From Candidatus Aenigmatarchaeota archaeon (GTDB lineage Archaea; Aenigmatarchaeota; Aenigmatarchaeia; Aenigmatarchaeales; JACQIB01), in NCBI GenBank assembly GCA_046760225.1, contig JBHIDR010000002.1:1-52881 (forward strand): DNA of 52,881 nucleotides. Direction: 5' to 3'. Under the pieces are notes generated by a model. The model searched no databases and was not told the origin of the DNA. It saw only the letters and a program-made list of their open reading frames with translations. The stretch's first letter is position 1. Each line of letters begins with the position of its first letter. The translations under genes were made by a program, and so were the position numbers. Of the stretch, positions 19,495-34,469 are shown in pieces.

Positions 19495-20665
19495 GTGCGA
19501 AATCAATTAGAAAATTTAAATAAAAATAACTCAAATATTTATTGTATGAAAATAATAACTAAGAGCTTTATTCCAACATCTATTGATAAAAGAGTGTTCT
19601 TTTTTGAGGAGCTAAAGGATAAAATCAAAGTTTTTTTCTAAAAGAACTGGAAGCGGAAGTAACCCCAAACCATTTATACTTCCTAAAGAAATTGAAATTG
19701 ATGAGGTTTTCACTGAAGCTGTTGGTTTATATGTTGGTGATGGAAAATTAACAAAAAATGATTTAACACATGCAGGATTTGTAAATAAAGACAAGGATAT
19801 TATAAAGTTCATGTTTCAATTTTTTAGAAATGTAATGAATGTACCTATAGAAAGAATGTGTATAACAATAGGATATAAAAATGAAGACGAAGAGAAAATA
19901 AGAGAGAAATGGTCAAAAATACTTGATATTAATGAAGCAAAATTCAGATTTCAAAAATCAAATAGACATAAATTTGAAACGGTAGATGTTCAGATTAACA
20001 GTTTCGTTTTTAGAGTAATTTTTCAGAACATCCTTGAACATTCCCTACAAGTAATAAAAAGAAATAAAAAGTTAAGAAGAGGGTTTCTAAGGGGTTACTT
20101 TGCTGCTGAGGGTACAATTGGTTTTAAAGAAAAAGATAATTGCATTGAATATATAGGCTTTTCTTATAATCCTTTGGGTGAAGGTTGGTTAAGAAATTTT
20201 TGCATAGATTGTCTTAGAATCGAAGGAATAAAAGCAAAATACAAAGAAAGAGATGGAAACAGGGCAGAAATTATAATTAATAAATGGAAAAATTATTCGA
20301 AATTATGGGAAATTAGAATTTTTGACAGATGTGAAAGAAAAAAACAGAAGTTCACAAAAATACTTAACTCAAGAGAATTTTATTGTAAACTTAATGATGA
20401 ATTTAGACTTGAGTTTTTTGATTCAATAAACCTGTATCAAAGGGATATTGCAAAAATAATAAATTCATGGCAAGGAAATGTATGCAAAACTATACAAGGA
20501 AAACATTTAATGACAATAAACCAAATAAAAAGGCTTATTCCGTATTCAAAATTCTCAAAGGAGGATATAAATAAAAATATAGAAGGTGTAAGAATAGGTA
20601 ATATGAGGGGGTTTGTCTCTGACAAGTATCTTCCTGAGAAAAATAAGGAAGAAGGACTGGATTGA
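19495..20665 (+). mobile_element. free-standing double-motif LAGLIDADG homing endonuclease, frameshifted at T7 run 19631-19637
   Basis: AT-rich; EAVGLYVGDG and GFLRGYFAAEG motifs; GAGGTG SD with GTG 19495; first frame stops 19639-19641, +1 frame continues to 20665. Confidence 0.8.
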
Positions 20666-20669: not shown

Positions 20670-21046
20670 TGTATAACGCGCTTGATTGCTTCTTTAATCA
20701 TTTCTTTAGGAGGATAGGGATATTGCTTTCCTTTGAAGAAATAGGTTCGGCATCCGCACATGCATTCCTGTTTTACAAATTCAGTTGTCCCCTTTGTTTG
20801 TTCAGCAAGCTCTTCGCATGACATACATCTTCCTTTGCTAACTTCTTCCTGGATATCTTTTCCATTGATTGTAACAGAAGGCGAGCCTACAAAATTGTAC
20901 TTTTTTGCCCTTTCATCAGAATCAATCAATGTTTCCTCTACTTCAGCCTTAACTCCAAGTTCCTTCAAACTTTCTTTAACCAGCCCTTTGGTCTTGACAC
21001 AATGAGGGCAATTGAGTATATACAGTATCTGTATTTTCATAACCAT
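20666..21046 (-). CDS. thioredoxin-fold protein (DUF2703-like)
   Basis: CPHC, FVGSPSVTINGKDI, GCRTY. Confidence 0.8.
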   Translation of the reverse strand: MVMKIQILYILNCPHCVKTKGLVKESLKELGVKAEVEETLIDSDERAKKYNFVGSPSVTINGKDIQEEVSKGRCMSCEELAEQTKGTTEFVKQECMCGCRTYFFKGKQYPYPPKEMIKEAIKRVIH

Positions 21047-21138
21047 AATTCAGCGCAAGCACTTAAATAACTAAGCCAGGCAAAACAATTTAAACGCTTA
21101 GATTTAATCAGATTAGTATGGGGCTGGCCGTATAGGCT

Positions 21139-21358
21139 GGGGCAGTAATCCTTTTGGAGGACTGCATGCTCAGCCCGGGAGAGCGCTACATCCGATTGGA
21201 GGCGAACCTGAAGACTCGGATGAGCGGCAAGGTAGACACCGGCACTTTTGTGTTGATGGCTCATTTGTCGCGTGCGTGCATCAGGTACCTCTGGTGTGCC
21301 GCGAATTCAAATGGGAGTTAGGTCTCCTATCTTCCTGAAGCTCACGCCTGCCCCACCA
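21139..21358 (+). tRNA. tRNA-Phe(GAA) with six introns: 21148-21167 (9/10), 21190-21206 (30/31), 21214-21229 (37/38), 21236-21264 (43/44), 21275-21305 (53/54), 21312-21341 (59/60)
   Basis: removing the six hairpin introns gives a fully paired 77-nt cloverleaf GGGGCAG TA GCTC AGCCCGGGA GAGC G CTACC CTGAAGA GGTAG TTGTC GCGTG TTCAAAT CACGC CTGCCCC A CCA; TTTAAA box about 45 nt upstream. Confidence 0.92.
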
Positions 21359-21411
21359 AATTTCTTCGTCGAACAGATGAAGTCTTTGTACATTGATAGG
21401 AGGTGGAGCAA

Positions 21412-21570
21412 ATGCACATAAACTATACAAACAAGCCAGAAGGCTGGAAAATGAAAGAATGGGGAAAGATATACGTAGACAAACCAGGACATTACGAATT
21501 TGATGCACCGTCAAACAGATGGATATATAAGGGTGATAAAAATGAAGGAGAAGATAAGCGTATTCTTTAA
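21412..21570 (+). CDS. small hypothetical protein (52 aa)
   Basis: strong GGAGGTG SD; MHINYTNKPEGWKMKEWGKIYVDKPGHYEFD...; below the ORF-track cut-off. Confidence 0.6.
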   Translation: MHINYTNKPEGWKMKEWGKIYVDKPGHYEFDAPSNRWIYKGDKNEGEDKRIL

Positions 21571-21594
21571 ATCTTTGGAGGACAATCATATTGC

Positions 21595-22170
21595 ATGAAA
21601 ATAGGCATCATAGGGACATTCAATACAGGAAAGACGTCTCTTTGCCATTCCCTTGTGGGTGCACTGAAGGAGAAGGGGGTGAGGGCCGAGTTTGTTCCAG
21701 AATCAGTAAGGAACTGCCCAATGCCTGCTGGCACAGAGGGCAACAGCACACTGGATTCCCAGATGTGGATAATAGCAAAGCAGGTAGCAAATGAGATGGA
21801 GGCTGAGCACAACAATGATGTCATTGTATGCGACAGTAATATAGTGAACATCTATGCATACTTTCTTTCAATTCTCAAGAACACACCTAACCCCAAAGAG
21901 GAGTTTGTCAGCATTGCAAAATCAGTGCTTGAAGAGTGGCACAAGACATATGACTTCCTCTTCAAGCTCACAATACCAAAGGAGAAGCAGATGATGATAA
22001 CAAATGACGGCTTCAGGTCAGTGAACCTGAAATGGCAGAAGGAGATTGATGTATTAATTGACCAGATCATCAGTTCTCTGGGTATAAAGGTATATGAAAT
22101 ACCGCTTGATTCTAATCTGGAGAGGGTAAGAAAAATAATGAGAATAATAGAGGAGAATAAGCCTTTTTAA
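21595..22170 (+). CDS. AAA_28 / NadR-like P-loop NTPase
   Basis: IGIIGTFNTGKTS, VPESVR, YDFLF, DGFRS. Confidence 0.8.
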   Translation: MKIGIIGTFNTGKTSLCHSLVGALKEKGVRAEFVPESVRNCPMPAGTEGNSTLDSQMWIIAKQVANEMEAEHNNDVIVCDSNIVNIYAYFLSILKNTPNPKEEFVSIAKSVLEEWHKTYDFLFKLTIPKEKQMMITNDGFRSVNLKWQKEIDVLIDQIISSLGIKVYEIPLDSNLERVRKIMRIIEENKPF

Positions 22171-22789: not shown

Positions 22790-23281
22790 ATGGAAGCTGA
22801 AGTCAAGGAAGACAAGGTTATTGTAGAGGAAGGGGAAGAGCTGTATGAGCAGGGATGGTATGGCAATCTTGAGGGAAAGAAGCTGATACTTGACCTGGTC
22901 GAGGCAGTGCTGCTCATGGAAAGGGCAAAGATAGAGCTCAAGGACATGGACTTCAAGGAGTTCTTCCACTACTGCTCCAAGATTGACCCCAGATTCACAG
23001 CCAGATATGCTGTTTACAGGGACCTCAGGGATAGGGGGCTTCCTGTGAGAACAGGTTTCAAGGGAAGTGATTTCAGGGTTTATGAAAGGGGGGCAAAGCC
23101 GAAAAAGCAAGGGAAGGTCAAGTGGATAGTTTTTGCAGAAGCAGAGGACTATCCCTGTGAAATGGAAAAGCTCGGAAAGGCAATAAAGCTGGGAAAGAAC
23201 ATAAGGGCTGTTGCACTCTGGGCTATTGTGGATAATGATTTAGATGTGACATATTATATAATTAATTCGATTTCACCGTGA
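22790..23281 (+). CDS. endA: tRNA splicing endonuclease, probable structural (beta) subunit
   Basis: LDLVEAVLL, YAVYRDLRDRG, SDFRVY, AIVD..VTYY; no catalytic His. Confidence 0.85.
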   Translation: MEAEVKEDKVIVEEGEELYEQGWYGNLEGKKLILDLVEAVLLMERAKIELKDMDFKEFFHYCSKIDPRFTARYAVYRDLRDRGLPVRTGFKGSDFRVYERGAKPKKQGKVKWIVFAEAEDYPCEMEKLGKAIKLGKNIRAVALWAIVDNDLDVTYYIINSISP

Positions 23282-23286
23282 TTGAT

Positions 23287-23847
23287 ATGAGTGTTATAGA
23301 GACTATCAAAAAAAGAAGGAGTATAAGAAAATTCAAAAGGAAAGAGGTGCCTGAATATATTATAAAGAAAATCTTGAACGCTGCAAGGCTTGCTCCTTCA
23401 GGTAACAATGCCCAGCCTTCAAACTATATCATAATCAAGGATAAGAAAACAAAGGAAATGCTAAAGAAAAACAAGATATTTGTGCAAAATTTGGTGTATG
23501 ATGTCCCATTGATAATAGCATGCTGTGCGAATCCCGATGCTTATCCCAAGACCAAATTTATTGAAGGTGTTGATGACCCTAATGTTGCAAGGGCTTTAAG
23601 AGACCTTTCAATTGCCTCTTCATATCTTGTATTAGCAGCAACAGAACTGGGTCTTGGTTGTTGTTATATAGGATGGATGAACAAGAAAAAGGCGAAGAGA
23701 GTGTTGGGAATACCTAAGAATTTCATCTTTCCTTATGTCATAATATGTGGCTACCCCAATGAAAAAAGGAAAAGGAGCAAAAAGAAGTCTCTTAAAGAAA
23801 TACTACATCATGAGAAGTGGTGGTATGATAAAGGCGCAACTTGCTGA
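23287..23847 (+). CDS. nitroreductase family protein
   Basis: IKKRRSIRKF, AARLAPSGNNAQP, LAATELGLGCCYIG, GYP. Confidence 0.9.
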   Translation: MSVIETIKKRRSIRKFKRKEVPEYIIKKILNAARLAPSGNNAQPSNYIIIKDKKTKEMLKKNKIFVQNLVYDVPLIIACCANPDAYPKTKFIEGVDDPNVARALRDLSIASSYLVLAATELGLGCCYIGWMNKKKAKRVLGIPKNFIFPYVIICGYPNEKRKRSKKKSLKEILHHEKWWYDKGATC

Positions 23848-24355
23848 GGACAGGGTGATTGTATGGGAAAAGAAGGCAGCTGAGAAGCTGTACGGTGAAG
23901 GCACTTTCGGGAAGATGAGAAACGAGAAGCTTGAGCTTGCGCTCATAGAGGCAGCCTATCTGGTTGATAAGGGAAAGATAAAGATTGTTGAAGATAGAAA
24001 GAAGATTGACAAGGAAAGGTTCTTTGATTATTGCAAAAAGCTTGACAAGAGGTTCGATCACAGGTATGCTGTTTACAAGGACCTCAGGGAAAGGGAACTT
24101 GCTGTCAGAACAGGCTTCAAGTTCGGCTGTGATTTCAGGGTATATGCAAAGGGAGTCAGGCCATTGAAGAGGGGTCCAAAAACAGCACGGGAGCACACAA
24201 AATGGGTTGTTTTCGCAGTGCCTGAGAAATATGTTTTCAGCTTTCCAGAGCTGTCCAGGGCAGTGAGGCTTGCGCACAACATAAGGGCAAATATGTTATG
24301 GGCAATTGTGGGAAAGAAGATAAAATATGTTCAGGTTCAGTTTTTTAAACCTTAG
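23825..24355 (+). CDS. endA: tRNA splicing endonuclease, probable catalytic (alpha) subunit
   Basis: LALIEAAYL, YAVYKDLRER, TGFKFGCDFRVY...EHTKW, RAVRLAHNIR; ATG 23825 after GGTGG. Confidence 0.9.
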   Translation: MIKAQLAEDRVIVWEKKAAEKLYGEGTFGKMRNEKLELALIEAAYLVDKGKIKIVEDRKKIDKERFFDYCKKLDKRFDHRYAVYKDLRERELAVRTGFKFGCDFRVYAKGVRPLKRGPKTAREHTKWVVFAVPEKYVFSFPELSRAVRLAHNIRANMLWAIVGKKIKYVQVQFFKP

Positions 24356-27850: not shown

Positions 27851-28202
27851 ATGAAGGAGATGCGCCTTTGGCAAGCATGAGAAGAAGATTCTTGTAGAAG
27901 CATCTCTATCAAAGCGCGAGGAACAGATTCTTTCTGACATCGTATTTCTGCAGGGAATGACATATTCCCGCGCTGTAAGGGAGCTTTCTGGAAAATATCC
28001 TGAGAGCACTGTGAAGTACATACTGCGAAAGCTCAGGAAAGGGGGCCTCATTGTCTGTGGCAGCTCCAGGTGTCATGGTGTTCCTATCAAGGTTACTGAA
28101 AGGGGTCATCGTCTAGTGGCAGGACAGCAGCCTCCAGAGCTGCAGACGGGGGTTCAAATCCCTCTGACCCCACCAAAAAGGAGGTGCTTATATGAGGGGT
28201 GA
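27851..28202 (+). CDS. winged-HTH protein with a disrupted 5' end whose 3' part overlaps tRNA-Trp
   Basis: open frame from about 27855: ..LSKREEQIL..TYSRAVRELSGKYPESTVKYILRKLRKGGLI..; ATG 27851 is out of frame with it. Confidence 0.55.
28102..28175 (+). tRNA. tRNA-Trp(CCA), intron-less, CCA encoded
   Basis: GGGGTCA/TGACCCC acceptor stem; GCAGC-CT CCA GA-GCTGC anticodon arm; GGTTCAAATCC T-arm. Confidence 0.93.
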
Positions 28203-34288: not shown

Positions 34289-34469
34289 TGGTGCCCCGGA
34301 TGGGATTTGAACCCACGACTTCCTGCTTTCATCGCCGAAGCTCAAGTCTTCTAAGCTTGGCTTAGAAGGTTCACCAGGTTTGACCTTCAGGCACTCTATC
34401 CATTCCAGAGTCTTTGGTTTCCCCAAAGACTTAGCTGAGTTTTCCCGAGCAAAGATTGCTTACCGGGGC
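34289..34469 (-). tRNA. tRNA-Arg(UCU) with four introns: 34442-34461 (8/9), 34403-34432 (D-loop, about 17/17a), 34370-34387 (30/31), 34328-34362 (37/38)
   Basis: spliced 78-nt cloverleaf GCCCCGG TA ACTC AGCTTGGATA GAGT G CCTGC CTTCTAA GCAGG AAGTC GTGGG TTCAAAT CCCAT CCGGGGC A CCA; each intron is a hairpin bounded by a 4-bp helix and 3-nt bulges. Confidence 0.92.

Follow-up and report, generated by a model that had tools for sequence, protein, structure and literature searches.

Evidence for a tRNA-Phe(GAA) gene interrupted by six bulge–helix–bulge introns in a Candidatus Aenigmatarchaeota archaeon

Introduction

Archaeal tRNA genes with up to three introns have been described, the richest genome being that of Pyrobaculum calidifontis, with 71 introns in 46 genes (PMC8450103). 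In the Thermoproteales similar introns are found in different tRNA genes, a pattern discussed as 'intron transposition' (PMC4090602). Introns occur in 92–95% of the tRNA genes of Asgard genomes (PMC11291895), and a 2026 Asgard preprint gives up to five intervening sequences per tRNA gene; that genome census leaves open the route by which archaeal tRNA introns arrive. In the red alga Cyanidioschyzon merolae an ordered removal of introns was shown experimentally, with the 37/38 intron last (PMC3728597), and the loop-bearing EndA endonucleases of DPANN archaea have been tied to tRNA gene disruption, with the expectation that disrupted genes remain undetected (PMC5829648). In this study we describe a tRNA-Phe(GAA) gene in a stretch of 52,881 nucleotides (nt) from a Candidatus Aenigmatarchaeota archaeon (assembly GCA_046760225.1, contig JBHIDR010000002.1; hereafter the window), in which six introns of the archaeal bulge–helix–bulge (BHB) type separate seven exons.

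Like the Thermoproteales, this organism has multi-intron tRNA genes, non-canonical insertion sites, a predicted heteromeric EndA with an extra loop, and similar introns across genes. Unlike the Thermoproteales, for which at most three introns per gene are reported, it reaches six in one gene, and its 34 called genes contain at least 69, in a 0.85-Mb DPANN genome. Asgard archaea likewise have most of their tRNA genes interrupted at BHB sites, with many missed by standard callers and with repeated gains, but they belong to a different phylum and reach five introns against six, and the near-identical introns across genes seen here point to copying between genes. In C. merolae, too, a single gene can have introns at 37/38 as well as in its D arm and T loop, and the order of removal that we propose would be the same; that system differs in being nuclear and eukaryotic, with no more than three introns to a gene, and its expression has been demonstrated by northern blot and reverse transcription PCR, whereas the gene described here is known from DNA alone.

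The initial annotation of the window, made from the sequence by eye, gave three introns per gene as the known maximum. This agrees with the 2021 tRNAscan-SE 2.0 paper but is overtaken by the five given for Asgard archaea, so that the present count exceeds the highest published one we found by one, not by three. The annotation also knew of no description of six introns, and our literature search found no report of six in one tRNA gene, the supplementary tables of the Asgard papers being outside its coverage; it found no report of the multi-intron tRNA phenomenon in Aenigmatarchaeota. The locus thus raises the introns seen in one tRNA gene to six and is the most fragmented colinear tRNA gene documented here, one that is presumably spliced at each of its introns.

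Results and discussion

Exon–intron structure of the tRNA-Phe(GAA) locus

The gene lies at window positions 21139–21358 (+). Its seven colinear exons of 9, 22, 7, 6, 10, 6 and 17 nt join to a 77-nt product, and the introns account for 143 of the 220 nt (65%). In the list below, intron sites are given in Sprinzl numbering, H is the central helix of the motif, and a hyphen within a bulge marks the cut.

21139..21147, +, exon 1: 9 nt, acceptor 5′ strand, U8 and A9
21148..21167, +, intron 1: 20 nt, at 9/10, strict hBHBh′ with H GCAG/CTGC and bulges TA-A and AT-G
21168..21189, +, exon 2: 22 nt, D arm, G26 and nt 27–30
21190..21206, +, intron 2: 17 nt, at 30/31, strict BHB with H CGCT/GGCG, bulges AC-A and AA-C, inner helix of 3–4 bp
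21207..21213, +, exon 3: 7 nt, nt 31–37 with anticodon GAA and G37
21214..21229, +, intron 3: 16 nt, at the canonical 37/38 (38/39 gives an identical product)
21230..21235, +, exon 4: 6 nt, nt 38–43
21236..21264, +, intron 4: 29 nt, at 43/44, H with 3 of 4 pairs (AGGT/GCTC), inner hairpin with 8 of 9 pairs
21265..21274, +, exon 5: 10 nt, variable loop and T-stem 5′ strand
21275..21305, +, intron 5: 31 nt, at 53/54, H CGCG/CGCG with a 10-bp inner helix (HBh′)
21306..21311, +, exon 6: 6 nt, T-loop nt 54–59
21312..21341, +, intron 6: 30 nt, at 59/60 (60/61 gives an identical product), H TTCA/TGAA, inner helix of 9 pairs with one mismatch
21342..21358, +, exon 7: 17 nt, nt 60, T-stem 3′ strand, acceptor 3′ strand, A73 and CCA

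In a BHB motif a helix of 4 bp separates two 3-nt bulges, one on each strand, with flanking helices; the cut falls after the second bulge base. The central helix is a perfect 4 bp in four of the six introns and has three of four pairs in introns 3 and 4; inner helices of 3–10 bp are present in five. Intron 1 has an inner helix of 4–5 bp and an outer helix of 3 bp, which grows to 7 bp once the 5′ leader is included. In intron 3 the motif is relaxed (CTGA/GCGG) with a weak inner helix, and its outer helix is the anticodon stem, which becomes whole only once intron 2 has been removed. Intron 4 has a 6-bp outer helix in which the 3′ end of intron 3 takes part. Exons 4 and 6 are each exactly one BHB footprint long, four nt of H strand plus two bulge nt, and the six footprints do not overlap, which suggests that 6 nt, one footprint, is a practical lower limit to exon size.

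When the exons are joined, ARAGORN returns a fully paired cloverleaf with stems of 7, 4, 5 and 5 bp and a 9-nt D loop. The 7-bp acceptor helix is followed by A73 and an encoded CCA ending at 21358; all tRNA genes listed for this genome encode the CCA. Our own scorer finds every conserved base that it checks, and the joined exons carry U8, A14, G18G19, U33, G37, G53:C61, the T loop TTCAAAT, A58, A73 and the anticodon GAA. G37 and A73 together with a GAA anticodon are the usual identity of archaeal tRNA-Phe.

These data confirm the structure that the initial annotation had proposed. Its intron lengths (20, 17, 16, 29, 31 and 30 nt) match the BHB-derived cuts, and its insertion sites (9/10, 30/31, 37/38, 43/44, 53/54 and 59/60) match them as Sprinzl numbers. 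The BHB scan bears out the four fully paired central helices and two relaxed ones that it listed, and its two 6-nt exons and 65% intron content are correct. Its fully paired 77-nt tRNA-Phe is recovered with cuts in Sprinzl numbering; taken as linear indices, the same positions yield a 77-mer that ARAGORN still calls Phe(GAA) but whose anticodon stem has two non-pairs and whose T stem is 4 bp long, and we reject that version. For five of the six introns the motif scan places the perfect BHB one base beyond the linear-index cut. Because the D loop has 9 nt, the annotated positions are read as Sprinzl numbering.

A split or permuted gene is ruled out, as the seven exons follow one another in order on a single strand, all within 220 nt. 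Four of the four open reading frames (ORFs) overlapping the locus match no Pfam family, and a scan for bacterial-type promoters and terminators is uninformative for an archaeon.

Detection and statistical controls

As the initial annotation had anticipated, standard scanners pass over the gene: ARAGORN and the Rfam tRNA model are both silent at the locus, the unspliced 220 nt give no Rfam tRNA match, and across the whole window both programs yield only a tRNA-Trp at 28102. ARAGORN detects the Phe gene only after at least four introns have been removed, and then in one of 15 four-intron and two of six five-intron combinations. The annotation had recommended a search allowing multiple BHB introns, and our own finder, which walks the sequence, may skip any BHB-like candidate intron and scores the remainder as a cloverleaf, does recover the six-intron Phe solution. 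It returned 17 solutions for the locus, the best of which are all six-intron Phe(GAA) and differ only in the variable-region intron.

When the interior was dinucleotide-shuffled 300 times with the acceptor strands left in place, the same search gave no solution, and it gave none at 174 reversed-genome decoy anchors, where there were 12 timeouts. Folding of the 220-nt RNA gave a minimum free energy (MFE) of −86.1 kcal/mol (z = −2.1), which was equalled by four of 200 shuffles and is a weak signal by itself. In modelled local folds, the BHBs of introns 2, 5 and 6 equal or nearly equal the MFE structure and those of introns 1 and 4 come close; the intron 2 BHB is the local MFE structure, at −6.6 kcal/mol, and the intron 6 BHB is present in the global MFE fold.

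An intronless orthologue and introns in other relatives

A genome of the same genus (G001), of which about 566 kb was fetched and subjected to the same search, carries an intronless tRNA-Phe(GAA) that scores 66.8 bits with the Rfam tRNA model against a cut-off of 29. The joined exons are identical to it at 70–71 of 74 positions; the differences are G7A with C66T, which form a compensatory pair, one D-loop base, and nt 44. In both G001 and the window the order tRNA-Phe, M54 peptidase, EndA1, EndA2 and CBS protein is conserved, with 66–73% protein identity, and the interrupted locus is therefore the positional orthologue of the sole Phe gene detected in G001. Homology to the intronless gene fixes unique boundaries for introns 1, 2 and 5, which equal the BHB cuts, and for introns 3 and 6 the two agree within a 1-nt ambiguity. 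A BLAST search of the assembly that holds the window (G000) with the G001 gene matched exon 2 alone (22 nt, 95%). When the unspliced 220 nt were searched by BLAST in 40 relatives, no match was seen outside G000, because the exons are too short.

In these relatives 14 further Phe genes were resolved, of which seven are intronless, four have one intron and three have two. The 9/10 intron is also present in the Phe genes of G016, G023 and G040, the 37/38 intron in those of G021 and G005, and the 53/54 intron in those of G023 and G040, while the second Phe copy of G040 has an intron at 59/60. The Phe gene of G004, from the same family, has introns at 27/28 and 44/45. The 53/54 intron is 31 nt long in all three genomes, and ten of ten hairpin pairs are kept at 29–38% interior identity to G000. 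To judge from these sequences, the G000 gene combines sites used across its order and adds 30/31 and 43/44. The anticodon loop and discriminator are the same in 13 of the 14 relatives' Phe genes, and one has G73.

Strain variants in vent metagenomes

The region also occurs in four hydrothermal-vent metagenome runs, all DNA and from one study, whose contigs were produced by a different assembler; no RNA run is among those listed as carrying it. Contigs of all four runs carry the arrangement, one of them from a sample not marked as a potential source of the assembly, and two runs, which may be that source, are identical to the window over 1101 nt. A contig from another sample (X3) covers 20700–21350 with the single change T21253C, which turns a G.U into a G:C pair in the intron 4 hairpin.

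Several variant contigs, at a low depth of about 3–5, differ in their introns. One lacks intron 1, a slightly different exon 1 being joined directly to 21168 with introns 2–4 present. Another lacks intron 6 and runs from introns 3–5 and position 21312 straight into the T-stem 3′ strand, the acceptor strand and ACCA. These empty sites for introns 1 and 6 show the predicted junctions. A further contig departs from G000 in the 5′ flank and within intron 1 and nowhere else; the intron carries one deletion and two substitutions, and a compensatory change preserves a 4-bp inner helix. The substitutions at 21241, 21243 and 21253 all preserve pairing in the intron 4 hairpin, and among those listed in contigs of other samples none falls in an exon, all lying in the flank and the introns.

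Is the interrupted locus the functional gene?

Taking these data together, we consider it very probable that the organism makes its tRNA-Phe(GAA) from this locus, a functional, colinear gene with six BHB introns of the archaeal type. The most serious alternative, although an improbable one, is that it is a decaying or silent pseudogene, with a functional tRNA-Phe in the unassembled 17% of the genome and insertions gathered after function was lost. The assembly is 83% complete, duplicate genes do exist in it (His-GTG, Thr-TGT and Asn-GTT each have an intronless and an intron-bearing copy), and splicing is deduced from DNA. A decaying gene, however, would hardly have kept its exons intact, with a compensatory acceptor pair relative to G001, or BHB geometry at the exact junctions of all six inserts. 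The listed substitutions are confined to introns and flank with helices preserved, and the locus stands where G001 has its only detected Phe gene. The initial annotation held that a separate intact tRNA-Phe, together with the lack of a spliced product, would make this locus a pseudogene; on the DNA side, five methods gave no second tRNA-Phe in G000: ARAGORN, Rfam, a BLAST search that used the G001 gene, a D-arm pattern and our own finder. In G000 the D-arm pattern that characterises these Phe genes has a single match. Many of the 34 tRNA genes called in this genome are multi-intron and single-copy, so the cell must in any case splice multi-intron genes.

It is still less probable that the locus has been parsed wrongly, and that it holds five introns, another anticodon or variable-region set, or another identity such as Gly(TCC). 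The 17 solutions do include several variable-region placements and one poor five-intron Gly(TCC) model with a penalty of 2.25. Yet all the better-scoring solutions are six-intron Phe(GAA), the TCC model works only with mismatched stems and a variable region of 16 nt, and the intronless orthologue is a Phe gene with a 5-nt variable loop. That the structure is an artefact, whether over-fitted chance complementarity (removing six segments gives large freedom, and the initial annotation was made by eye) or mis-assembly, is the least probable of all in view of the empty shuffle and decoy searches, the separately assembled contigs of four runs and the matching orthologue.

Some observations do weigh against a functional six-intron gene. 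Two of the six motifs (introns 3 and 4) are relaxed. The boundary of intron 4 is the least certain and may be 43/44 or 44/45 (21237–21265): the BHB favours 43/44, with a variable loop as in G034, G030, G018 and G023, whereas identity to G001 favours 44/45, and several alternative placements of this intron appear among the solutions. Within this analysis the BHB cut rule has a single support, that it reproduces the sequence of the orthologue. The modelled full-length fold, at −86.1 kcal/mol, lies far below the fold constrained to six BHBs (−62.6 kcal/mol), so that all six motifs need not form simultaneously, and the BHB proposed for intron 3 differs from the modelled local MFE structure. The incomplete assembly may hold a second Phe gene in its missing part. 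In alignments, the canonical catalytic Lys position of the EndA described below has no Lys, either in the window or in 14 of 14 aligned orthologues from relatives. Lastly, transcription, cleavage, ligation, the order of splicing and the role of the leader are all deduced from the gene.

Splicing enzymes

Both genes of a probable two-subunit endonuclease (PF01974) lie 1.4 and 2.5 kb downstream of tRNA-Phe.

22790..23281, +, EndA paralogue 1: 163 amino acids (aa), Pfam tRNA_int_endo_N and tRNA_int_endo, with PDB matches
23825..24355, +, EndA paralogue 2: ORF opens at 23747, homologues start at Met 23825

Paralogue 1 lacks the catalytic His and the loop and is probably the structural (beta-like) subunit. 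Paralogue 2 has the Tyr, the His and a loop insertion aligned to the catalytic subunit of Nanoarchaeum equitans, its best solved match being 3iey_A (E 6.4e-35), and is probably the catalytic (alpha) subunit; the loop insertion may correspond to 'L3', as judged from the alignment. With one paralogue carrying Tyr, His and the aligned loop and the second lacking the His, the pair resembles the N. equitans (alpha-beta)2 EndA (3iey), but differs from it at the catalytic-Lys site, where paralogue 2 reads NIRANMLW (Ala) against RKK in Methanocaldococcus jannaschii and N. equitans; the 14 aligned orthologues of relatives have Ala there as well. This endonuclease would have to process its substrates without the textbook catalytic lysine, which makes it of interest in its own right. 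Since both EndA genes are found in G001 too, the enzyme by itself does not account for the number of introns.

An RtcB ligase is encoded on contig C35 (1477–2834). Its match comes in two pieces, profile positions 47–426 in one frame and 3–52 in a stretch with two internal TAG codons, which could reflect a frameshift, an error or a split start.

A 5′ leader element and a proposed route of processing

The 5′ leader of the gene contains an element that can pair with the 3′ end of the tRNA.

21119..21138, +, 5′ leader: 21119–21131 complementary to the 3′ T-stem/acceptor strand and A73 (21344–21355)

In the model, 21135–21138 pairs with the AGCC of the D loop, which gives the first BHB an outer helix of 7 bp. 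The fold that includes the leader has an MFE of −104.7 kcal/mol, and the pairs in that motif's central helix reach probabilities of about 0.97. All four Phe genes with a 9/10 intron (the window, L057, L074 and L079) have in their leader the element TGGG(G/A), whose complement is the 3′ acceptor end with A73; they amount to about three independent cases because L074 and L079 share a genus. A leader run of at least 5 is seen in only one of 11 Phe genes without a 9/10 intron, that of G001, where the 7-nt element is a different one. The loose ends of the vent contigs fit this association of leader and 9/10 intron.

We propose that a precursor of about 240 nt would be transcribed from an upstream A/T-rich box. 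Each intron, with the six exon bases preceding it, would fold into its own local BHB, the six motifs being non-overlapping and each having its own cut sites. The two-subunit EndA would cut within the bulges, and RtcB would join the seven exons into a 77-nt tRNA with encoded CCA. The leader may pair with the 3′ acceptor strand while the first BHB holds the 5′ acceptor strand. Introns 2 and 4 would be removed before intron 3, because intron 3 contributes its 3′ end to the outer helix of intron 4 and needs intron 2 gone to complete its own, and the canonical 37/38 intron would leave last.

tRNA introns across the genome

The G000 assembly comprises 851,505 nt in 83 contigs with 43.9% G+C. ARAGORN, with introns allowed, reported 21 tRNA genes, some of them wrong, and Rfam gave 17 above the cut-off. 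Our own search took as anchors the 804 places where a 7-bp acceptor helix is followed by any base and CCA; of these, 486 were searched, 312 were skipped for want of T8 and six timed out. It called 34 tRNA genes, no two of which share an anticodon. Its distance filter excludes any gene of 75 nt or less, and four short intronless genes from ARAGORN bring the total to at least 38. Standard finders thus miss about half of the tRNA genes in G000, and tRNA counts in quality standards for metagenome-assembled genomes and inferences on codon usage in DPANN archaea would be biased as a result.

The 34 genes are distributed by number of introns as follows.

0 introns: 4 genes
1 intron: 12 genes
2 introns: 6 genes
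3 introns: 6 genes
4 introns: 4 genes
5 introns: 1 gene (Ile-TAT)
6 introns: 1 gene (tRNA-Phe)

There are at least 69 introns in these genes, and 18 of the 34 genes have two or more; intron counts are lower bounds, and a few variable-region introns have probably been missed, for example in the TCC and GGG genes. By site, 15 of the 69 are at 59/60, 15 at 37/38 and eight at 30/31, so that 54 lie outside 37/38. The 'tRNA-Phe' that ARAGORN reports on contig C4 is actually the five-intron tRNA-Ile(TAT).

Three families of introns are 94–100% identical between different tRNA genes at 59/60, and one of them also has a copy at 37/38. None of these shared families was found in the fetched part of G001, where 22 tRNA genes have no intron and 19 have one; two further G001 rows with three introns look like read-through across adjacent genes. 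The six Phe introns have no close paralogue in G000 or G001, the best score being 12 against a shuffle maximum of 11, and the likeness of intron 1 to the 22/23 intron of Gln(TTG) and to intron 2 was rejected as chance-level.

These observations allow a broader and more tentative reading, to which we give slightly less than even weight: that BHB introns are actively moving in the vent Aenigmatarchaeota population, that tRNA-Phe is near a geometric packing limit, and that the leader co-evolved with the 9/10 intron and holds the precursor together. Active movement is suggested because co-sampled strains differ in intron subsets, genes share identical introns, and the same-genus genome has nearly none; a packing limit is suggested because two exons are just 6 nt long, the length that one BHB takes up before its cut. 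If this were true, the vent community would be a natural system in which to catch archaeal intron gain and loss under way. In any case, an intron-poor genome of the same genus, identical introns across genes and strain variants together offer a place to study how archaeal tRNA introns arrive.

Further tRNA observations

One of the shared families is a 42-nt intron, 97.6–100% identical, in the 59/60 T loops of Arg(CCT), Glu(TTC), Gly(GCC) and Pro(CGG), with a diverged copy at 37/38 of Pro(CGG). One copy falls outside the called genes and probably marks another hidden tRNA. The copies are as follows.

C6:13898–13939, 42-nt intron family
C30:2943–2983, 42-nt intron family
C30:3821–3859, 42-nt intron family
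C47:898–938, 42-nt intron family
C71:2128–2169, 42-nt intron family
C71:2067–2096, 42-nt intron family

The window itself holds a second multi-intron gene, a tRNA-Arg(TCT) at 34289–34469 (−) with four introns (20, 30, 18 and 35 nt), for which Rfam gives only a partial match of 19 bits at 34292–34341.

For His(GTG), Thr(TGT) and Asn(GTT), the intronless and intron-bearing copies differ in body sequence; the intronless ones could be a second set or reflect transfer or binning.

C6:6855–6929, C6:28345–28419 and C17:6811–6885, intronless copies of His, Thr and Asn
C1:51776–51888, C16:4260–4357 and C17:9213–9351, intron-bearing copies of His, Thr and Asn

Neighbouring genes

About 470 nt upstream of tRNA-Phe, a 284-aa ORF at 19811–20665 (+) gives a sub-threshold match to LAGLIDADG_3 (E 0.0032, 18.1 bits against a cut-off of 22.5) and no match in PDB or NCBIfam. 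Relative to G001, the window block holds extra genes (21403–22170 and 23278–23847). A 55-aa ORF and an AAA_28 P-loop protein lie between the tRNA and the M54 peptidase; used as a synteny anchor, the AAA_28 gene is absent from G001, and loci L003–L006 contain no Phe gene. A nitroreductase sits between the two EndA genes in the window, unlike in G001.

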